The notes beneath the pieces were generated by a model, which did no database searches, was not told the origin of the DNA, and worked only from the letters and a program-made list of their open reading frames with translations. The translations under genes and the position numbers were made by a program. A DNA stretch of 64,000 bases from Marispirochaeta sp. (lineage in GTDB: Bacteria > Spirochaetota > Spirochaetia > JC444 > Marispirochaetaceae), in the NCBI GenBank assembly GCA_963676835.2, contig CAXXFF010000001.1, positions 256,001-320,000 on the forward strand, in the 5' to 3' direction. Of the stretch, positions 18,509 through 30,010 are shown in pieces (position 1 is the first letter of the stretch; every line of letters starts with the position of its first letter).

Positions 18509-19933
18509 CTATTTCATTACTCCTGTTAGATCCATATCGCTGTATCGGGCCGCGATCTCTTCAGCTTTCTTGACTGCAATTCCCCGATACTGTTCCTGGT
18601 GAGCGAAAAACTCGTCCGCAGAAGGCAGTCCCACCGATTTAAGTGAAGCACTGATCATTTCTGATGTAGATGGATCCTCTGCAATCGCTTTCGCAAGGGT
18701 TATACCTTCATTTTCACAGCGGAGAGTCAGCTGTTTAATAATCTCATGGGCGTCCGACTCACCCGCCGCGGCAAGCAGAATATAGGCTGCCTCTGCCAGA
18801 ACAAGATCTCCCGATGCTTTTATATTCTGCATCATGACATTCTCATTAACATGCAGACTGTCGAGGACTTTATACATTCGTGCCACAGCAGCTGCAAAAC
18901 CGGTAAGATAATCCGCAATAAAACGCATAGAAGCGGAATTGCTGAGATCCCTCTGATGTTCGGAGATCTGGTCCATGTAAAAGGTCATAACCCGGGGAGC
19001 AAATGCCTTCCAGAGACTTTTTACATGCTCTGAATTCCAGGGATTTCTCTTCTGGGGCATGGTGGATGAACCAACCTGTGAACTGGTAAAAAGCTCTCTT
19101 ACCTCATTCAGTTCGGAACGCTGCAGATGCCTGAGATCATCAGCCAGATTTGCAAGGATTCCAAAGGCAACATTTACTTCCAGCAGCAGCCTGAGCAGAT
19201 ATTCAGGTTCAACCATCTGGGTTGACGTTTCGGATGGTTTAAGCCCCAGGGATGCCAGGATTTCCGCCTCGAAGGCTTCCGGATCGGCGGTCAGCAGCGC
19301 AGTTGAGTTATATGAACCCACTGCACCGGCAATCTTTCCACGGAGATCCGCCGAATATTCAGCAATTTTAAGGATTGATTTACCGAGTCTGGAGGCATAT
19401 TCAGCCATGGCAAAACCAAAGGTTATGGGGACCGCATGTTGTCCATGGGTTCTGCCGACCTGAGGAACCGAGGCGTTCTCCCGGCAAAGCTGTACAAGCT
19501 TCTCTTCCACCTTTTTAAGCTGAGGCAGAATAACCTGCTGCACACTGTCCCGCATACGCATGGACTGAGCGGTGTCCAGAATATCAACAGAGGTGGTACC
19601 GAGATGAACGTACGGAGCAGTTTCTGCAGGTACCTTTTTTTTCAGTACATTCACCAGGGCACGGATATTATGCTGGGTTTTTTCTTCTTCTTCGTAAACT
19701 TCGGCGGGACTTACAGTTTCTTCTACTGAATCAAGGGCTCTAATAAGATCAGCCCGTCCGTCAAGACTCAGGTTTACATGGCTTTTAAGCAGGGCGATCT
19801 CGACTTTAATACAGTACATGATCGATGCTTCTTCGCTGAGATAGTTGGTCAGATTGTCAAACAGTTCGCGATTTGCGAGATAATAACGGTGGTCCAGGGG
19901 GGACAAATTATGAAAAATGCTTCTCTCTTCCAT
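18509..19933 (-). CDS. purB: Adenylosuccinate lyase
   Basis: SPLDHRY, HLGTTSVDI, GRTHGQHA, GAVG, GSSTMPQKRNP, HQRDLSNSA. Confidence 0.95.
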   Translation of the reverse strand: MEERSIFHNLSPLDHRYYLANRELFDNLTNYLSEEASIMYCIKVEIALLKSHVNLSLDGRADLIRALDSVEETVSPAEVYEEEEKTQHNIRALVNVLKKKVPAETAPYVHLGTTSVDILDTAQSMRMRDSVQQVILPQLKKVEEKLVQLCRENASVPQVGRTHGQHAVPITFGFAMAEYASRLGKSILKIAEYSADLRGKIAGAVGSYNSTALLTADPEAFEAEILASLGLKPSETSTQMVEPEYLLRLLLEVNVAFGILANLADDLRHLQRSELNEVRELFTSSQVGSSTMPQKRNPWNSEHVKSLWKAFAPRVMTFYMDQISEHQRDLSNSASMRFIADYLTGFAAAVARMYKVLDSLHVNENVMMQNIKASGDLVLAEAAYILLAAAGESDAHEIIKQLTLRCENEGITLAKAIAEDPSTSEMISASLKSVGLPSADEFFAHQEQYRGIAVKKAEEIAARYSDMDLTGVMK

Positions 19934-19938
19934 ACGCT

Positions 19939-20004
19939 ACTATGCCAGAATCGTTCCGGGTTTGTCAAAGCCCGGTGGCCCAGATAGGCTTAATTTGTTA
20001 CACT
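19939..20004. promoter_or_regulatory. Divergent promoters of purB and the TPR gene, both possibly leaderless
   Basis: Minus strand: TTGACA(19968-63)-18-CATAGT, then 5 nt to the purB ATG. Plus strand: TG-t-TACACT(19999-20004), then 5 nt to ATG 20010. Confidence 0.45.
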
Positions 20005-20009
20005 CAGGT

Positions 20010-21908
20010 ATGGAAAAATACGGGAAAATTCTGAAGAAAGCCTTAGATGCCGGGCGTCAGCGTGATTATCAGGGCGCCATTAAGCTTTTAAACCAGGTAA
20101 TCACAGAATCGGATGAATACCCCCAGGCCTATCTTTATATAGGCAGAAGCTACCATGCCCTCGGTGAATATCACCGGGCGGTTATCTATCTGCAGTTTTT
20201 CTGCCGAATGAACCCCGACTCCTCTGCGGCCAACTTTTTCCTCGGCCGCGCTTATCTTGCCGCCGGTATCCCGGCCAAAGCTCTTCCTCATCTGGAAAGA
20301 GCGGTGGAAACCGGCTCCAATTCCAAACCGCTCATTCTTCTTGGTCTTGCATGTCTGAAAGTAAAGGAATTCAGTTCTGCCGTAACATACCTCGGCCGGG
20401 CAGTAGAAATGGAACCAGAGAACCGCGGCGTGTACACTGCCTATCTTAATGCCCTGTATGTTCATGCACTGAGAAGATTTAATTCCGGAGATTTCGATCT
20501 GGCCGGGCAAATCCTTGCGTTCCTGTCAAACCTGGATCTCAACTCAGTGAGCATCCATCTTTATCTGGCAAAAATTCTCAGAGAACAGAACGATTTCACC
20601 GGAGCAGCCCTGCAGTACTCTAAAGCCGCAACTCTCGAGCCTGATGATGAACTTATTCAGCTGCAGCTTGCTGATTGTCTCAATTCTACAGGGAAAACAG
20701 CTGAAGCAGAAAAAATCCTTAATAATATTCGCTCAACCCTGCCTGGAGGAGAAGGTTTTTCCCTGGGAGAAGAAAATGTCGATCCCCTGCTCGCGGTGCG
20801 CAATTTTCAGGAAAGCAATTTTCGCAAAGCGGTTTTCCACGGCTGCCGCGCATTAAAACACCGGAGAGATGCGGACATGCACCTTCTTGTAGGAGAGTCC
20901 TACAGAAATATAGGCAGCCTGTCAAAAGCTGAAAATCATTTTAATCAGGTACTCAAAGGAAACCCCAACAGCAGTGAAGCCCAGATGGGGCTTGCCATGA
21001 CCGAATGGCAGAGGGGAAACTATGAAGGGGTTATCAGCCACCTCACTCCCCTCCTCAAAGATCAACGTTACAGCAACCTCTCACGATACTATATTGTTCT
21101 GAGTAAATGCCGGCTGGACTTTCCTGCGGAAGAAATGCTTGCGGCGGTTATTCAGGAAGTTCGGGATAATGGTCCGGATCAGTACCTGCTCACCGCTCTG
21201 GGAGATCAGTACGTTAGAAACAGCATGCCGGAGTTGGCGGTTAAATGGTATCAGAAATCACTGGTACTTAATCCCGAAAATACCCCGGCAAAAGAGGGTC
21301 TAAGCGTCTGTTACCGGAGCATGGGAGACACTGAGAACCTTATATCCCTGTTACGTGAGATTCTTGAAAAGGATAATACCAACATCCCCGTTATTGTACA
21401 GCTTGTAGATCTCCTGTACGAAGAAGAGTTCTACCATGAAGCTGCCGCAGAGGCGGAACGCCTGCTGGGACTGACAGAACTGAACACCCGACTGCAGCGC
21501 CTCCTTGCTATCTGTTATAGAAAAACCGGACGATATCGCGATGCAGCGGTAATTTACCGGGAACTGCTGAAAGAGGAGCCTGAAAGTGAAGTATTCCTCC
21601 GGTCCCTACTTTTCTGCCTTGATAAATGCAGAAGAAGAAAGCAGGCACTTGAATTGCTCGAAAAAGCCATGGAATATCTGAAAAAACCAAGTGCCTCTCT
21701 GCACCTTATCCATGGGGTATTTCTGCATAAAGAAAAAAATATAGAAAAAGCACTGGCAGCATTCCGCTCTGCAATGGACAGGGCGCCAAAAGACTGGAGA
21801 CCTTATTATAATATTGGCCGGGTTTATGAGGAAAAAGATATGAAGTCGTTTGCGGCAAAGTTTTTCAAGAAGGCGGAAGAACTTAAGATTTCAGAAAAAC
21901 GTGCTTGA
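20010..21908 (+). CDS. Tetratricopeptide repeat protein
   Basis: Multiple TPR-like repeats (AYLYIGRSYHALGEY, FFLGRAYL, YYNIGRVY). Likely start is MEKYGK at 20010; the track start overlaps purB. Confidence 0.9.
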   Translation: MEKYGKILKKALDAGRQRDYQGAIKLLNQVITESDEYPQAYLYIGRSYHALGEYHRAVIYLQFFCRMNPDSSAANFFLGRAYLAAGIPAKALPHLERAVETGSNSKPLILLGLACLKVKEFSSAVTYLGRAVEMEPENRGVYTAYLNALYVHALRRFNSGDFDLAGQILAFLSNLDLNSVSIHLYLAKILREQNDFTGAALQYSKAATLEPDDELIQLQLADCLNSTGKTAEAEKILNNIRSTLPGGEGFSLGEENVDPLLAVRNFQESNFRKAVFHGCRALKHRRDADMHLLVGESYRNIGSLSKAENHFNQVLKGNPNSSEAQMGLAMTEWQRGNYEGVISHLTPLLKDQRYSNLSRYYIVLSKCRLDFPAEEMLAAVIQEVRDNGPDQYLLTALGDQYVRNSMPELAVKWYQKSLVLNPENTPAKEGLSVCYRSMGDTENLISLLREILEKDNTNIPVIVQLVDLLYEEEFYHEAAAEAERLLGLTELNTRLQRLLAICYRKTGRYRDAAVIYRELLKEEPESEVFLRSLLFCLDKCRRRKQALELLEKAMEYLKKPSASLHLIHGVFLHKEKNIEKALAAFRSAMDRAPKDWRPYYNIGRVYEEKDMKSFAAKFFKKAEELKISEKRA

Positions 21909-21949: not shown

Positions 21950-22495
21950 ATGGCCGTCAAAGCTCTTGATCTTTTTCAAGCCTATGCCGAAGGAAAACTG
22001 CCTACGGATGGCGGATTTATTATTTCATCATTTTTTGACAGGAACTCTGCTTATTCTATCTACGAAGTTGTTGCCTATAATGCAGTTAAGAATATCTATC
22101 TCGGTGGAGACGGACTAACGTTTCAGACCGACGGCTGTAAACTCTTTGTCCTGGCAGAACCACCAAATTATTCCGAAAAACATGTTGAACCCTACGTGAG
22201 GAAAATGAACTATCAGATCCCTCACCGTTTCAGTGAAGTTGAAATCCTTACTGCTAAAAATCAGACAAAAATAATGGTCAGCAAAGAACCGACCATGACT
22301 TATGGTTCTTTTACCATTCTCAAACCTACAGGAATCAACTTTGCTCTATGCGTTTTTAATACGCCGGATGTTAACAGTACTATGGAATTTTTCTTTACAG
22401 AAACTCTGAACAAAGAAGCAGGCATCCCTAAACTCGACGCGAAGAAAGCAGCTGCTCTTGTTGTTGAAGGTATTAAAAAGTTCTCTATTTTCTAA
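21950..22495 (+). CDS. Hypothetical cytoplasmic protein
   Basis: Strong SD, own promoter and terminator, globular composition; no recognised motif. Confidence 0.8.
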   Translation: MAVKALDLFQAYAEGKLPTDGGFIISSFFDRNSAYSIYEVVAYNAVKNIYLGGDGLTFQTDGCKLFVLAEPPNYSEKHVEPYVRKMNYQIPHRFSEVEILTAKNQTKIMVSKEPTMTYGSFTILKPTGINFALCVFNTPDVNSTMEFFFTETLNKEAGIPKLDAKKAAALVVEGIKKFSIF

Positions 22496-22612: not shown

Positions 22613-25264
22613 CTATTTTGAAGCGCCTTCTTTTTCGAGCTCAAGCTGTGCTACAGCAAGCATTGCAATTGGAACGCTATAAACAGAACAGGATACATAA
22701 TCCAGACCGGAATCCATACAAAAGCTGATATTTTCGGGTATTGCACCATGCTCACCGCAGAGACCTTTTTTAAGCCCCGGCCGTGTCATAACGCCCCTGC
22801 GCACCGCTGCCTGAATAAGCTCTTTTACATTCTTGTCCAGCTCCTGAAACGGATTCCCGCTGAGAATATCAAACTGCGTGTAATCGGGCATAAAGGAGTT
22901 GAAGTCATCCCGGCTTAAGCCAAGGGTTGTCTGGGTCAGGTCGTTAGTACCAAAAGAGAAGAACTCGGCGTACCGTGCTATTTCCCCGGCACTCAAAGCA
23001 GCAGCGGGAAGTTCAATCATGGTGCCGATTTTGTAGCCGATCTCTTTACCGCCCTGTGCTTTTCTTACCTCATCGGCAATGGTATTCAGCCCTTCGTATG
23101 AATCACCTTCTATCTTTTTTCCGTAGACAATAAGTTTAAGTTCGTCTGCGTTCATAATCAGGGGAATCATAATTTCAGGCAGCACTGTAACCTTATCTTT
23201 TTGAAGAGCATATGCAGCCTCAAAAATAGCTTCCACCTGCATACGATAAATCTCAGGGTAAGAGACAGCAATACGGCAGCCCCGATGACCAAGCATCGGG
23301 TTGAACTCACGCATGCCTTCACAGAGAGATTTAACCTCTTTTTTTGTCACCTTGGCATACTTGGCCTGACTTTTAAGATAATCAATAAAGTGATCCATCT
23401 CTGCATCGTTATGAGGCAGAAATTCGTGAAGCGGAGCATCCAGCAGCCGAATGGTAACTTCCTTACCATCCATGGCACGAAAAATACCGGTAAAATCATC
23501 CACCTGCATTTTTTTCAGTTTTTTTAGCGCACTGCTTCTGCCGGCGGCACTATCTGAAATAATCAGTTCACGAAAAACATTTATCCTCTTTTCATCAAAG
23601 AACATATGTTCTGTACGACACAGTCCAATACCCTGGGCACCGAAACGTACGGCAAGCTCAGCATCTTTGGGATTATCTGCATTAACACGAACATGAAAAT
23701 CTTTTGTATACTTTTTTACAATATCAATATACTCAAGCAGCCCTGAACCTTCCGGTGAAGGTTCGATCAACTTTGCCTTTCCGATATAAACTGATGCATC
23801 TCCGTAATGAGGAACGTTAAGGGTCAGATAGTCGCCCTCCTTAATGGATACCCCATCGATAACAGCCTTGTTCCCGTTTATTTTCATCTCCGGCTTAACC
23901 AGAGAGACTTTTCCATACTGGCGGGCAACGACAGATGCATGAGCACTGTATCCTCCCTCACAGGAAAGAACACCGGTAGCAACTTCTATGGCTTTAACAT
24001 CTTCTGCAAATGTCGCAGGCATACACAGAATAAACTGCGTATCGATTCCATCCAGTTGAGCGCTCTTATACGCTTCAAGCAACCCTTCGGTGGTGAAATA
24101 TACCTTACCAATGGCAGCTCCCGGCGCACCGGATATTCCGCCGGTGAGCTCTTTGAAATCAGTGATCGATTTGAGATCTACCACGGGATGCAGTATTTCA
24201 TTCAGCTGTCCCGGTTTAATATTGCGGATAATGTATTCATCATCCACTACCTTGCGCCGATTAAGATCGAGCAGGGTCTGAATATCTGCCTGAGTAGATT
24301 TCGTCATTAATGGTCTCTGCTCAATGAGCCATACTTTTTTGTTTTCAATGGTAAACCTTATAAAACGTATTTCCTTAAAATGGTCTTCAACAGTTTTGGC
24401 AATTTTCTGCAGCTCTTTCAGAAAACCCGGTCCGATCTTGTTTATGTCTTTACCTTCAGTGTCAATGGTATCGAACTCATTCTGATTAAACCAACCTTGA
24501 AGCTGATCATTACCTGTAACAATATCCCGGGTATAAAAACTACCGGAAGAACTGTCTTTTCCATAGTTTCCGTAAACCATGGGCTGTACAAGAATTGCTG
24601 CGTCTTCATCGTCTAAATCATCAAGCTTAAGCATGAGGCTGATTCGCTTGAGGGCAATTTCAGTCTGCTCAAGACCGCTGGCAAAAAACTCTTCCGGAAG
24701 CAGAGTACGATGTTTCTGAAATGCCTTTTTTAAAGCATCAACACCGGCTTTACCTTTCAGCACTTCCTTAAGTTCTTTAATGGCATCTTCAAACTTCTTT
24801 TTATCCTTATCCCGTTCTTCCAGTTCCGCAATTTTTAACTCTATTTCAAGAAATCCGTGCAGCATAAAAAGAATTTCATGATATCCGAATTTTTCACCTA
24901 CATACTTACAAAATCCAGGAATAGTTTTCTCTGTAAGTCCAAAATTGTGGAGCGTCGGGTAATGAACTATGGCAAGGTTCGGGCTTATAACAAATTTCAA
25001 AAGAAGAGGGTTTTCCGGATCATCAAACTTCTTATTGACTACATCCTCAAACTTTTTGAGGTACTGCTTTGCCTCGCTTTTCAGGTCGACACTTTGAAGA
25101 TGCGCAGCTATTTCAGCATCAATGATAATGCCCGGAAGAATAGGCAGATCAAGGGAAGCAAACTCAAGGGCCTGTTTTCCCCGTAAACCGGCTTTATCCA
25201 TAACCTGCGAGTTTGCTGATCGTACTCCGGGTCCGAAATATTGAATATTTTTATTGGCAGCCAT
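22613..25264 (-). CDS. ppdK: Pyruvate phosphate dikinase-like PEP-utilising protein with degenerate nucleotide-binding domain
   Basis: QPMVYGN, PGAAIGKVYF, GGYSAHASVVAR (His442), GIGLCRTEHMF, IRLLDAPLHEFLP, NPMLGHRGCR, GTMIE, FSFGTNDLTQ, GLCGEHG. Confidence 0.88.
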   Translation of the reverse strand: MAANKNIQYFGPGVRSANSQVMDKAGLRGKQALEFASLDLPILPGIIIDAEIAAHLQSVDLKSEAKQYLKKFEDVVNKKFDDPENPLLLKFVISPNLAIVHYPTLHNFGLTEKTIPGFCKYVGEKFGYHEILFMLHGFLEIELKIAELEERDKDKKKFEDAIKELKEVLKGKAGVDALKKAFQKHRTLLPEEFFASGLEQTEIALKRISLMLKLDDLDDEDAAILVQPMVYGNYGKDSSSGSFYTRDIVTGNDQLQGWFNQNEFDTIDTEGKDINKIGPGFLKELQKIAKTVEDHFKEIRFIRFTIENKKVWLIEQRPLMTKSTQADIQTLLDLNRRKVVDDEYIIRNIKPGQLNEILHPVVDLKSITDFKELTGGISGAPGAAIGKVYFTTEGLLEAYKSAQLDGIDTQFILCMPATFAEDVKAIEVATGVLSCEGGYSAHASVVARQYGKVSLVKPEMKINGNKAVIDGVSIKEGDYLTLNVPHYGDASVYIGKAKLIEPSPEGSGLLEYIDIVKKYTKDFHVRVNADNPKDAELAVRFGAQGIGLCRTEHMFFDEKRINVFRELIISDSAAGRSSALKKLKKMQVDDFTGIFRAMDGKEVTIRLLDAPLHEFLPHNDAEMDHFIDYLKSQAKYAKVTKKEVKSLCEGMREFNPMLGHRGCRIAVSYPEIYRMQVEAIFEAAYALQKDKVTVLPEIMIPLIMNADELKLIVYGKKIEGDSYEGLNTIADEVRKAQGGKEIGYKIGTMIELPAAALSAGEIARYAEFFSFGTNDLTQTTLGLSRDDFNSFMPDYTQFDILSGNPFQELDKNVKELIQAAVRRGVMTRPGLKKGLCGEHGAIPENISFCMDSGLDYVSCSVYSVPIAMLAVAQLELEKEGASK

Positions 25265-25289: not shown

Positions 25290-26300
25290 TTAGAACAGAT
25301 TCAATACGGTGTTGACCGGGAATCTTAGAAAATCTTCAAACCTCGGGCTTGCACCCTGCCGAAGATAACGCTGGAGTTTGGCAACATCCTTGATATCTTC
25401 TCCTGCCACAGCGAACACAATGGTACTGCCATGTTTAACTTTGCCCCATTTAAACAGGGCGTGGATATCGTGAATTCGCTCGCCTTCATAAAAAATAAAG
25501 ACATCAAGCCCCGGATGTTTTGCTTTATAACTCTGTATTATTCTTTTCCAGGCTTCAACATTTCCATTATGAAAAAGTTCATTGCTTACTGGAACAGAAT
25601 AGAGAGGGGTCATACGTTTTTTTGCACCCGAAGACTCTGCAGGAGCGGCTTCCTCTCTTACAGGTTCATTCTTTTTAACCGCGGGGCGCCCACGGCGGGG
25701 CTGGCGTGTTTTGCGTGCAGGAGTGCTTTTCTGTTCAGAAACCGCTTTTTTGGGTTTAGTCCATTTAAAAGTACCGTTCAGGAGTACAGCCGGGCTTTTG
25801 GCAGGTTTGTTATTCAGGAAATTGATGAGGGTTTCTGCTGCTTTGAGAGCAACTTTACCATCAACCCCCTTCTCAAGACCTCCGGCATATACAGTTACCA
25901 GTTCATTTTTGCGCAGGTTTCCGGCGGCTTCCCACTGTTCAATGGATTTAGGATTAATTACCTGTAAACCAAGTTCGGGATGAATGTAAGTTAATACCAG
26001 ATCAACCGCATTCCAGGTTTTAACTGCTTCGCAAAGTTCATCAAAGGAGTCCACCGTTTGAAGCATATTATTTGAGCTGCAGATATATTCATATTTGTCC
26101 ACAAGCAAAGCATAAATTATCGGACTAACCTGATTTTGAGAAATGGACCCGTCACTTATACCTTCGTTGAGGACATCCGCCAAATTGCGCTTAGACTGTA
26201 TTTCGGGGATAATATTGGCTACTGCCTGAAAATGACCGAGGGAGGAATTAAATCCGTCACGAGTATAAAAATGTTCAAAGGCGTGCTGTAATGTTCCCAT
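25290..26300 (-). CDS. cfpA-associated protein: N-terminal domain, basic AT-hook linker, C-terminal HPr-like domain
   Basis: SD AAGGA then ATG 26300; linker contains PRRGRP; C-terminal VPVSNELFH...GSTIVFAVAGED resembles HPr. Confidence 0.75.
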   Translation of the reverse strand: MGTLQHAFEHFYTRDGFNSSLGHFQAVANIIPEIQSKRNLADVLNEGISDGSISQNQVSPIIYALLVDKYEYICSSNNMLQTVDSFDELCEAVKTWNAVDLVLTYIHPELGLQVINPKSIEQWEAAGNLRKNELVTVYAGGLEKGVDGKVALKAAETLINFLNNKPAKSPAVLLNGTFKWTKPKKAVSEQKSTPARKTRQPRRGRPAVKKNEPVREEAAPAESSGAKKRMTPLYSVPVSNELFHNGNVEAWKRIIQSYKAKHPGLDVFIFYEGERIHDIHALFKWGKVKHGSTIVFAVAGEDIKDVAKLQRYLRQGASPRFEDFLRFPVNTVLNLF

Positions 26301-26325: not shown

Positions 26326-26361
26326 AAAAAAAAGATACCCCCTCCAGAAAGAGGGGGTATC
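26326..26361 (-). terminator. Rho-independent terminator after cfpA
   Basis: Minus strand GATACCCCCTC-tttctg-GAGGGGGTATC-TTTTTTTT. Confidence 0.85.
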
Positions 26362-26375
26362 ACTGAAATACTAAC

Positions 26376-28436
26376 TTATATAGTTGTCAATCCGGAATCT
26401 TTAGATTTGGATTTCCTGGGGCGTCCTCTGCGTCCGGGTTTCTTTTTCGCCGGTGCATCTACAACACCTTTTGACTTTGCTCTGCCCTTTGCAGGAGCAG
26501 TTGTCTTAGGCTCGGAAACCGCAGCGGGCTCCGAGTCACTGTTGAGCATATCAAGATACGCCATACCAGCGCTCTGTTCGCCAGCAGGATCATCTTCTCC
26601 ACCAAGACCGGAAGCAAAGTGCATATCGATGTCTTCCCGTACAGTTGATCGACGTCTTGAGAAGGCTGCGAAAGCTGCGTCCTGGAATCCCTTGGAAACA
26701 CCATGGAGGAACTCGTTCAGAACGTTAGCCATACCATCGAGGGTTGCTTTTTTGCGCTTGATTGAGGTGATATCCACATCAAGAAGCAGACCGGGCTGAA
26801 TATGGTAGGGGTTGATCATGTAGTCGAACTTATTGAATTCCTTCTCCAGGAACTGGAGGCGGTCTTCCATAACGCGTCGCTGTACCGGATAACGGAAACC
26901 ATACATATCCTGAAGCTTGTTCTTCATCAGAATAAGGCGGTTTTTGATCTTGTCCTTCTCGAAGACATATGTTCTGTTCATCTTCTCTACCTGAGTCTCT
27001 GCAGGCTGAACAAAGGAGATCTCGTCCCAGCTCTTTTCGATATCTTCGTATACGGGATCGCCGGTTTTTGTCTTGATCTTCTTGCGGATCTTTGTTTTGT
27101 AGATTGCCGCAAGGTCATTGAAGTCAGATATCCGTTTCCAGAACTTGCTGTCTTCATAAACCATATCCAGAACATCCCAGATGTGCTGAACCTCAACCTC
27201 GAGGGATTTAACCATTACGTCATATGCCTTCCGCTCTTCGATGAGCTGGGCATTATCGTAATACTTCATGCGTATCTGGTACCGCTCATCGGGAAGATGC
27301 TGAGTATCAGTATCCTCATATTCGCGGAGAACCATTTCGCGGGTGTTCTTAAGGTTTTCGATATACTGATAACCCATTTTTGAGGTATCAAGTATTGAGG
27401 TAATAGAGTTAATGGCAGTGTTGTATCCGCGGTTACGGATATTTTCAATGTCGATAATCTCTTTCAGGTTTTCCCGGATATTGAGCTGATCAAAAGATTC
27501 AGGATCAATTTCCGCGCGAAGACCTTCGATTCTTTCCATCAGGCTCTTTGCGAAGTACCGGTACCTGTTTGACTTGGGATTTTCCTTGTCATCAGATGTG
27601 TGATTTTCAACCCTCTTCATCTTCTCAAAGATGATTTCGCTGTCGTTCAGCTCATCAAGACCCTCATCGATCCGCTGATCCTTCAGCAGTTCAATCTCCT
27701 TATCAATATTATCCATAATATGTTTGGAGATCAGGTCCTTGATCAGGTACTCAACGGTAACCTGATAGTGAAAGATGGGGCTGATAAGTTCTGAGTCGAG
27801 TATATTTACAGAGAGTTTAACATCGCATACTGTTTTTGGTTTGTGCAGGTTATCCTTAAAAGAACACTTTACAATTGAGTAAGCATTCTCTCCGCGAATA
27901 AACGCACCAACATCCGTTTTCTGCCGCAGCAGAGAGTTGGTGAGGTTTTCGAGATCGTTCACACCGCGCTGTATGTGTCCCTGAAGGTGCCCATACATAT
28001 TAACGATGGATTTCTCAATCTCACCGGTGTTGAACCGGTCTGTACCGCCTACTTCATCAAGAAGTGCGGCTATTTCTTTCGGGGTGTACCTGGTAAGTAC
28101 CTTCATCTCCTCGCGGTCAATGAAATTTCTTACCTTTTTAACCATTTCGTCTTCAGCAGTGACGATATAACGGTTGAACATGTTCTGGTAGTTCTGGTTG
28201 AAATAGTTATAGACTTTCTCTTTCAGCCCGCCCATTACGTCAAGGCGTTCGAGAACTTCCTTTGGCAGTTTTGCTTGAACATGGTTCATGACCTTGTCGA
28301 CTTCTTCTTCAAGAAGCCTGTCTACTTCAGCCTGCTGATCCCGGCTTTCCTGGGCGAGGGAGTTTCTTGAACCCACGGCACTTCGCTTTTCCGGGTGAAA
28401 AACCATCGGACTCTTTGGTAGATCTATGCTTCCCAT
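26376..28436 (-). CDS. cfpA: Cytoplasmic filament protein CfpA
   Basis: N-terminus [69 protein letters not shown]; 686 aa, coiled-coil rich; linked to a ppdK-like gene as recalled for Treponema. Confidence 0.93.
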
Positions 28437-28603: not shown

Positions 28604-30010
28604 ATGAAACAGAAAATTTCCAAAACATCCATTTTTGCCGTTTTTTTTATAATTCTGGTCTGCGTTACAGCTTCGCCCCTTTTCAGCGATGAACGCACGG
28701 AGAATATCGACGTTTTCCTTGTTCTCGACAAGTCCCTCAGCATGGTCGAAGAAATTGATTCAGTTGCCGACTACGTAGTGCAGGAACTTATCGAATCTAC
28801 CCTTATACCGGGAGATTTCTTTCTTGTTATCCAGTTCTACGGCCAGGCGGAAACTCTAGTGACCAGGAATATCACAGATACTGTCTCTTCCAAAACAGAA
28901 GTAGAAGACATTATCCGCACAATAGAGGCAGACGGCCATTTTACCGATATAGGTAACGCCCTGGACACACTGCGTTCGACACTTTCAAACTATCAGGACA
29001 GGGACAAACGCCGCTATATGCTGCTCATTACCGACGGAAAACAGGAAGCACCGCCACAGAGCATCTACTACAGCCCCGACGGGACCTTTAACCACGAATT
29101 CCTCGAGAACAGCAAGGTTATTCAGAAACAGGGCTGGAAGATTCATATTCTCGGAATAGGTGCCGGAACCTCTGCAAAAGAGCTTGCTGAAAACCTCAGC
29201 GCCACCTACTCGGAGGTTCCGGAAAACCCCGACGCCGAAGATCTTGCGGGAAGCACGGAAGATCTTCTCGGTATAATAGAAGCCGCTGCACCCGGATCGA
29301 TAGGTGCATTCAGTAAAAAAGGGAAAGCAAATATTAATCTGAGTCTGACAAGCAGCGGATATAACGAAGCGAAAACAGTACGCATTAAAAATCTGTATGT
29401 AACCTGGCAAGGTGTAGAATATCCGGCGGCTTCCGAAATCTCTATTGAAGTTCCCGCCGAAGGGAGTGTCACAGAGACAGTTAATCTGGAGCTTGAGCAC
29501 TATTCCGAGACCAACGGAAGGCTGGCTGCCGGGAACATTGAACTGCGGGCGGAATTCTACCCCGGGCCAGTATTTACCCCGGCCATAATAACTATTCCTG
29601 TCTCTCCGGTCAGCTTCTTTGGGCGTTTCTGGCCGCTGCTGCTTGCATTACTGCTGGTACTTCTTATAATTACTCTTATTGTCGTGCTTATAATCCGGGG
29701 CACATTCTCCAAAACCGGCATAGAAATTGAAGTTGATTTTGAGGAGACCGGGGAGAAGAAATTTTTTACCCTCGGAGAGAAAACACTGCTTTTCATATCT
29801 GAAGGAATCAACGGCATCAGTGTTGCAGCGAGGAAAACCGGCGAATTACTGGCTACCCTGCATACGGAGGGCGACCAGCTGATTATGATGCCGGAAAAGG
29901 ATGATGTACTGCTTGGCGGCCCAGTCAAAGGAAATATATTCGGCAGGAATCTTAAAATCAGGGACCGGTATGGAAAGTTCAAGGGACTTTTATTCAGCCG
30001 GAAAAGCTGA
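28604..30010 (+). CDS. von Willebrand factor A domain membrane protein (Tp0750-like)
   Basis: Signal peptide; MIDAS LVLDKSLSM, TDIGNAL, LLITDG; TM helix around aa 340-365. Confidence 0.85.
   Translation: MKQKISKTSIFAVFFIILVCVTASPLFSDERTENIDVFLVLDKSLSMVEEIDSVADYVVQELIESTLIPGDFFLVIQFYGQAETLVTRNITDTVSSKTEVEDIIRTIEADGHFTDIGNALDTLRSTLSNYQDRDKRRYMLLITDGKQEAPPQSIYYSPDGTFNHEFLENSKVIQKQGWKIHILGIGAGTSAKELAENLSATYSEVPENPDAEDLAGSTEDLLGIIEAAAPGSIGAFSKKGKANINLSLTSSGYNEAKTVRIKNLYVTWQGVEYPAASEISIEVPAEGSVTETVNLELEHYSETNGRLAAGNIELRAEFYPGPVFTPAIITIPVSPVSFFGRFWPLLLALLLVLLIITLIVVLIIRGTFSKTGIEIEVDFEETGEKKFFTLGEKTLLFISEGINGISVAARKTGELLATLHTEGDQLIMMPEKDDVLLGGPVKGNIFGRNLKIRDRYGKFKGLLFSRKS

Follow-up and report, generated by a model that had tools for sequence, protein, structure and literature searches.

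The PTS relay of Enzyme I and HPr, including its regulatory EI-Ntr/NPr branch, passes a phosphoryl group from the swivel histidine of a donor with a PEP-binding barrel to an acceptor histidine of HPr. In HPr this residue, His15, stands just before helix 1 (PMC8509676), and the PEP-to-histidine step is common to Enzyme I and PPDK (PMC5371819). In T. denticola, the genes TDE0842-0844 (cfpA, a hypothetical gene and 'PPDK') follow the same order as at the locus described here and are repressed together (PMC3914990). In T. pallidum, cfpA is 0748 and ppdK is 0746 (PMC8525777, PMC10013896), and TP0746 has been read as a glycolytic PPDK (PMC10013896, PMC8525777). CfpA filaments are linked to cell division, and T. 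denticola cells that have lost them show condensed chromosomes and grow as filaments (PMC3398590). No regulator or partner of the CfpA filament was found named in the papers examined. Searches of the openly available literature found neither HPr together with TP0747, nor HPr with spirochaete and cytoskeleton, nor TP0747 by name, while TDE0843 appears in one paper; within the same scope, no description of an HPr fold or a relay was found for the three genes.

The window analysed here, a stretch of 64,000 nucleotides from Marispirochaeta sp., carries this trio, in which cfpA and a PPDK-like gene flank a 336-aa open reading frame:

26376..28436 (-): cfpA, cytoplasmic filament protein, 686 aa (NF040882 1222 bits, cut-off 500)
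26334..26361 (-): hairpin resembling a terminator (12 pairs, T run) in the gap that separates cfpA from the TP_0747-family gene, a consensus match only
25290..26300 (-): TP_0747-family protein, 336 aa (ATG at 26300; 3146 homologues; PF27497; structure model)
22613..25264 (-): PPDK-like protein, 883 aa, 25 bp downstream of the 336-aa frame (TIGR01828 639 bits, cut-off 843)

An initial annotation of this DNA had described the middle gene as lying downstream of cfpA, which is the case, and the C-terminal sequence that it quoted was recovered identically from 25290-25613 (-), as 107 aa followed by a stop. A longer GTG start at 26363 was rejected because it would run through the hairpin (26361-26334) and because homologues start near the ATG at 26300; terminator-like hairpins were found at 6 sites, against 6.7 expected in shuffles. 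The 336-aa protein belongs to the TP_0747 family, PF27497 (TP_0747_N, the Atlas name) being present on the window's own protein and on all 120 listed homologues (precomputed; 3146 homologues among 5045 candidates). Pfam and NCBIfam searches returned no meaningful family for the whole protein or for its C-terminal domain. The trio is flanked by a 181-aa protein that neither Pfam nor NCBIfam recognises (21950-22495 (+)) and by TPR protein/vWA protein genes (19917-21908 (+) and 28604-30010 (+)), and these flanking genes are shared with several close relatives only.

In the TP_0747-family protein, a helical N-terminus is followed by a first HPr-fold domain, a basic Ala/Pro/Lys linker and a second HPr-fold domain:

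25806..26087 (-): N-terminal HPr-fold domain, residues 72-165 (80 residues align with HPr 9s8b_C at VIA Z 8.8, rmsd 1.9)
25614..25760 (-): linker rich in Ala, Pro and Lys, modelled at low confidence (pLDDT 46-56), with an RGRP motif that resembles an AT-hook
25293..25613 (-): C-terminal HPr-fold domain, residues 230-336 (model pLDDT 95; HPr is the top fold match)
25569..25571 (-): His244, candidate phospho-acceptor (codon CAT), directly before helix 1 (domain residues 16-32) in the model

The C-terminal domain is the most conserved part of the protein (across 91 rows, 31/107 positions do not vary). A model of this domain by itself, built from 49 sequences, reached a pLDDT of 95.2, with strands at 5-8, 37-42, 45-47 and 64-70 and helices at 16-32, 51-55, 77-87 and 90-95 (DSSP). 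The Foldseek rows listed for this model are all HPr or Crh, or complexes containing them, up to rank 21, and another fold first appears at rank 22; the best row has an E of 4.9e-3 and a prob of 1.00, TM to the query is 0.39-0.59, and no row has an E under 0.001. With VIA-align against 48,161 chains, the top four matches are HPr (Z 7.3-6.5, rmsd 2.3-3.0, 78-81 aligned), followed by an unrelated chain at Z 5.5 and NPr at Z 5.1, values to be read with the caution that a Z below 8 may reflect a common arrangement of elements. Identity in the HPr rows of both programs is 9-19%. The HPr-like C-terminal domain proposed in the initial annotation, with Foldseek as a check, therefore stands at the level of the predicted fold, of which HPr is the top structural match, but not at the level of sequence, where no profile method supports homology. 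The histidine that had been aligned with His15 of HPr is encoded by CAT at 25569-25571, as had been given; His244 is domain residue 15 and, in the single-domain model, is predicted to precede helix 1 immediately. In the full-length model (overall pLDDT 80), the helix starts at residue 247, three after His244, in a block with a pLDDT of 65.

The full-length model also contains the HPr fold at residues 72-165, which was absent from the initial annotation, and HPr is thus the top fold for both domains, each compared with 48,161 chains. The N-terminal domain has no conserved histidine ahead of its first helix. A convergent match, with a small alpha/beta sandwich unrelated to HPr and a histidine placed by chance, would agree with a Z of 7.3 below the caution line of 8, with the Foldseek E values and with the missing profile support. 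We regard it as highly improbable: two separate domains each rank HPr first, the order of the elements and the position of the histidine match HPr, and the neighbour is a PEP-utilising histidine enzyme.

The linker between the two folds ranges from 37 to 92 residues across homologues. The C-terminal tail of CfpA (window 26376-26450) likewise ends in a basic R-G-R-P motif, which we take to be AT-hook-like in tail and linker. GRP occurs in 42/120 linkers of TP_0747-family proteins and in 49/95 CfpA tails (loci L031-L070, L094-L173). The motif might possibly contact DNA, which would fit the chromosome phenotype of cfpA mutants.

As had been anticipated for standard profiles, PF00381 misses the domain: it gives no match for the window protein, at its genome position or for 28 relatives. 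A search of PDB sequences with the domain profile found no HPr, and its best row, an oomycete repeat protein, was judged a chance match made of two weak pieces. Comparison by hhalign with 25 spirochaete HPr sequences gave probabilities of 0.4% and 0.6%, which are not significant and come from shallow profiles. An Atlas 'HPr domain-containing' cluster, with a score of only 0.80, was set aside as a lead at best. The H-x-R-P signature (Arg17, Pro18), present in 25/25 spirochaete HPr, is replaced by H-N-G-N in 49/49 phylum-wide rows, the very replacement that the initial annotation had read in the window. Its G-x-x-I-x4-GED element is in fact spaced G-x-x-I-x5-GED. As for the regulatory Ser46, said to be absent, the window protein has no Ser there in either register, but which position is equivalent depends on the register: in the (non-significant) hhalign register it is Asp49, with Asp/Asn in homologues, and in the register of the initial annotation it is residue 52, which is Ala in the window and Thr or Ser in 91/120 homologues. 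Since no sequence method links the two and H-x-R-P is absent, the C-terminal domain is HPr-like and not an HPr family member. Separately, a partial PF00381 match with H-V-R-P (positions 4-48, at the cut-off) was seen in a 529-aa open frame (G000:C2:795463-795600 (-), L093), an HPr-like module in a larger protein.

His244 is kept in 120/120 close homologues (those listed, of 3146) and in 49/49 phylum-wide sequences, in agreement with the invariance among orthologues on which the first reading of the domain depended, as well as in 80/80 metagenome loci retrieved by patterns in which the histidine has no part. The counts from 80 GTDB loci were left out as partly circular, one scan pattern having contained it. 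A library-wide HMMER search gave 129 hits, of which the repeat proteins P0356 and P0368 were dropped; in the 107 aligned rows His244 is kept in 97 and comes 16th among the columns. The ten rows without it are the full-length P0316, P0326, P0332 and P0361 and small stand-alone proteins. The whole 12-residue motif around His244 is nearly as invariant as the histidine, so that His244 is not singled out, and it is no more conserved than N18, E20, A21, W22 or F14 (domain numbering). Within the cassette it is invariant in the sequences aligned, though not uniquely so. The stand-alone relatives of the domain (111-147 aa; P0336, P0341-P0343, P0346, P0348-P0350, P0354, P0359), including one cluster source-named SAR324 and one Deltaproteobacteria, mostly have no histidine at position 15, and some have one at 16 or 18; they are possibly Crh-like regulators. 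On a 1-kb contig (L213 3-647), the PPDK-like gene is immediately preceded by two tandem copies of the domain.

This pattern of conservation might also be expected if both HPr-fold domains were non-phosphorylated binding modules of an adaptor through which a PPDK-derived sensor is anchored to CfpA. In that case the invariant motif would be an interface and the histidine would bind a partner or a metal, by analogy with HPr bound to Rsd, glycogen phosphorylase or CcpA. Such HPr complexes do appear among the fold matches, the whole motif and a C-terminal Leu-Phe are conserved as well as the histidine or better, one of the two domains has no histidine at all, and copies that lack it retain the fold motif. 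The place of His244 in the model, at the position of the HPr histidine, speaks against an adaptor, as does the chemistry of the neighbouring protein (see below), and we hold this explanation to be unlikely.

The domain is inherited together with its neighbours. Among 301 Spirochaetota genomes, it gave a strong match in 106, cfpA was found in 107 and both in 105; G012, where the match is weak (E 3e-4, residues 30-86), was left out of the homologue count. A PPDK-like match is present in 103/106 domain carriers and adjacent in 97 (read by hand among the matches listed, beyond which there are 171 weaker ones). The six non-adjacent carriers form one family, f44 (G076, G086, G103, G146, G191, G221), whose genomes have all three genes, but scattered over separate contigs; each of three members examined retains the His motif. 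Where genomes are discordant, the contig runs out at the place expected for the missing gene in 5/6 regions (4/5 genomes: G075, G168, G048 and, on its PPDK-like contig, G261), and G278 has cfpA with neither of the other two genes nearby. Of 572 GTDB loci, the best 80 have cfpA upstream in all 72/72 with room for it and the PPDK-like gene downstream in 80/80; in the best 80 of 469 metagenome loci, the corresponding counts are 51/57 and 60/62. As kin genomes are non-independent observations, we give no statistic on co-occurrence. Ordinary HPr is found in 297/301 genomes, a distribution that does not follow that of the domain, cfpA and the PPDK-like gene. One genome (G005) has three full-length cfpA matches, on contigs C97, C69 and C102. 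The near-perfect co-inheritance with cfpA and the rebuilt PPDK-like neighbour were both absent from the initial annotation; together with the second HPr fold, they supply the likely donor and context.

The candidate donor residue lies in the PPDK-like protein:

23939..23941 (-): His442, swivel histidine, candidate phospho-donor (91/91 rows, 53/53 metagenome copies)

This protein falls short of the cut-offs of both TIGR01828 (639 vs 843 bits) and the Enzyme I model TIGR01417 (105 vs 342 bits). Its N-domain aligns to PPDK, and the helical HPr-binding N-domain of Enzyme I was not found in it. His442 corresponds to His455 of C. symbiosum PPDK, and His442, R550, R606, E751, N774, D775 and C836 are each kept in 91/91 PPDK-like rows, which gives a swivel histidine and a PEP site with its catalytic Cys. 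At the positions of Arg92 and Glu323 (C. symbiosum PPDK numbering) the expected residue occurs in 0/91 rows each, so that these ATP-binding residues are lost; the former position is Val or Ile and the latter mostly Arg or Lys, Lys22 is changed to Arg in 90/91 and the Thr two before the histidine to Ser or Ala. In a study of Flaveria PPDK, Arg95 and Glu324 are directly involved in ATP binding (PMC5507339). By the offset between the two numberings, we infer that these are the equivalents of Arg92 and Glu323. Both residues are retained in 20/20 canonical PPDKs, and a comparison of these with 36 PPDK-like proteins showed the histidine and barrel sites kept and the nucleotide-site motifs lost. Loss of Gln335 and Arg337 was not counted, the alignment register being ambiguous there. 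The old nucleotide site holds a new basic cluster (R28, K90, H106, R300, R/K303, K322), and R28, K90, S94, H106, R300 and K322 are kept in 89-91/91 rows and in all 53 metagenome copies, K322 being Arg in one. This pattern of residues is that of a rebuilt N-domain, not of a dead one. In the tree (FastTree), the PPDK-like proteins are set apart from the 20 canonical PPDKs by a long branch with full support. In five loci (L045, L048, L049, L051, L062), the PPDK-like proteins have 962-965 aa, and ~80-90 residues inserted into the N-terminal domain interrupt the match.

A site that is rebuilt and not decaying could also belong to a metabolic enzyme, which would for example convert PEP and phosphate into pyruvate and PPi, or use a nucleotide without the usual metal ligands, with the HPr-fold protein as its regulatory subunit. 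K90, two residues ahead of the lost Arg92, could perhaps substitute for it. In one genome (G102), the rebuilt PPDK is the only PPDK-type match and there is no pyruvate kinase match, and T. pallidum ppdK is listed among the highly expressed genes of that species (PMC8525777). In G102, however, PEP could still reach pyruvate by way of GTP-PEP carboxykinase and oxaloacetate decarboxylase, for both of which there are matches. A further PPDK match, more distant than the first, is present in most carriers, and the 20 such proteins examined are all canonical. The genome of the window itself encodes a separate canonical PPDK and a pyruvate kinase, along with two full-length HPr and one more PEP-utiliser taken to be Enzyme I; here the pair of PPDK-like and HPr-fold proteins is therefore extra. 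The basic cluster is moreover kept where the PEP site is dead, and the tie to cfpA has no metabolic explanation. Thus, we consider a metabolic role quite improbable.

The PEP site is intact in 46/53 metagenome copies and decayed in 7. These seven have lost R550, H553 and D775, they keep the basic cluster and the swivel histidine, and their partner proteins keep His244; in the tree they form a separate long-branched clade (FastTree). They come from a divergent cassette (L206-L212, e.g. L207 3416-11051) with the order cfpA, TP_0747-like gene, PPDK-like gene, second cfpA, the second cfpA following the PPDK-like gene in five of the seven loci. The cassette was found with P0222, whose source name is Deltaproteobacteria, which implies no host assignment for the contigs. 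The reverse case occurs in G078 and G105, drafts ~80% complete (the G105 gene contains an N), which have lost the basic cluster and keep the PEP motif and both histidines. The two histidines are thus the only catalytic elements common to all forms in the sequences seen. PEP cannot be the donor everywhere, given the decayed site in seven copies, and no other result weighs as heavily as this clade against a simple Enzyme I model.

The survival of both histidines beside a decayed PEP site would be accounted for if an ordinary PTS Enzyme I phosphorylated His244, which would pass the group on to His442, the PPDK-like protein being an acceptor or sink. The wide occurrence of HPr, in nearly every genome surveyed, and the presence of further PEP-utilisers in all five genomes checked agree with such an input. 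Against it, the helix-1 surface is wholly unlike that of HPr, having neither Arg17 nor Pro18 at the low identity given above, and the domain occurs where cfpA and the PPDK-like gene do, not wherever the general PTS does; we give this direction of transfer only a slim chance. That the PEP site can decay is also in keeping with the adaptor described above. An adaptor, however, leaves the neighbour with full PEP-to-histidine chemistry in 91/91 rows and with lost ATP residues, hence with a phosphoryl group that has no obvious exit. When the C-terminal domain and the 883-aa PPDK-like protein were modelled as a complex, the score was 0.19 against a mark of 0.32, which speaks neither for nor against an interaction.

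Our preferred reading, which we put at an even chance, is that the divergent HPr-type domain and the PPDK-like protein form a dedicated His-to-His relay regulating the CfpA filament. In a first step, the swivel His442 would be phosphorylated by PEP as in PPDK and Enzyme I, as its intact catalytic residues suggest. His442, no longer serving an ordinary ATP site, might then exchange the phosphoryl group with His244. The basic cluster could stabilise this transfer in place of the missing Arg17 of HPr or, just as speculatively, bind PPi, a nucleotide or the like as a second donor or effector. Finally, the state of phosphorylation, set by the PEP:pyruvate ratio, would control either the CfpA filament itself or how it is attached to the chromosome, as co-inheritance hints, by way of the HPr-fold domain that has no histidine and the basic linker. 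The fold matches, the position of the histidine in the model, the conservation pattern and the synteny support this relay, in which phosphotransfer and binding are putative. We also count for it that, in the copies compared, both histidines persist where the PEP site (7/53) or the basic cluster (G078, G105) decays, and that in the genome of the window the pair is additional to a complete set of the ordinary enzymes named above. Against it stand the missing sequence link to HPr, the absence of H-x-R-P, the position of His244 as one of many invariant residues, the distant copies without it, the non-adjacent genes of family f44 and the seven metagenome copies with a decayed PEP site. A more specific version, which we find doubtful, is a private, PTS-independent phosphohistidine relay of cfpA-bearing bacteria, in which a rebuilt PPDK is paired with a tandem HPr-fold protein. 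Its swivel histidine would have two inputs, PEP at the barrel and PPi, a nucleotide or another donor at the basic site, and would set the state of His244 and thereby control filament assembly or chromosome attachment.

Taken together, the co-inheritance of the TP_0747-family protein with a filament gene and a rewired enzyme suggests an unstudied phosphate relay attached to a bacterial cytoskeleton. If this is true, a PTS-like relay would have been built from PPDK instead of Enzyme I and would be invisible to HPr profiles; in the more specific version, the T. pallidum gene annotated as a glycolytic PPDK would encode a signalling enzyme. The glycolytic reading of TP0746 may indeed be questioned, because family membership and gene order are shared with the PPDK-like neighbour described here, a comparison made at the level of the family. 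A possible link from PEP to the filament is, with this trio, open to a specific and cheap biochemical test.

Compared with known systems, the locus shares its family and gene order with TP0748-TP0747-TP0746 and TDE0842-0844 of Treponema, for which the literature examined calls the middle gene 'hypothetical', treats the third as a glycolytic PPDK and mentions neither an HPr fold nor a relay. The C-terminal domain shares with HPr of the PTS (PF00381; 1POH, 2HPR, 1KA5), NPr and Crh a predicted beta-alpha-beta-beta-alpha-beta-alpha fold, a histidine immediately before helix 1 and a G-x-x-hydrophobic-x5-G element before the last helix. It differs from PTS HPr in having no H-x-R-P and no PF00381 score, a longer helix 1, an extra C-terminal helix and a tail; the fold is present twice in a 336-aa chain that is inherited with cfpA and the PPDK-like gene, while ordinary HPr is encoded elsewhere in the genome. 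With PPDK (TIGR01828; 1DIK, 1KBL, 1VBG, 5JVJ), the neighbour shares the three-domain layout, the swivel histidine and the PEP/pyruvate site. Unlike PPDK, it has lost Arg92, Glu323, the G-E-D-V-V-A-G loop and the Thr two before the histidine, and it has a new basic cluster, a score below the cut-off and a long supported branch of its own. The relay of Enzyme I and HPr, in turn, resembles the proposed one in its PEP barrel and swivel histidine and in an acceptor histidine on an HPr fold. In the proposed relay, however, the donor would be carried by a PPDK frame with a rebuilt ATP-grasp domain instead of the helical HPr-binding domain, the conserved trio includes no IIA or permease gene, and the output would be a filament.
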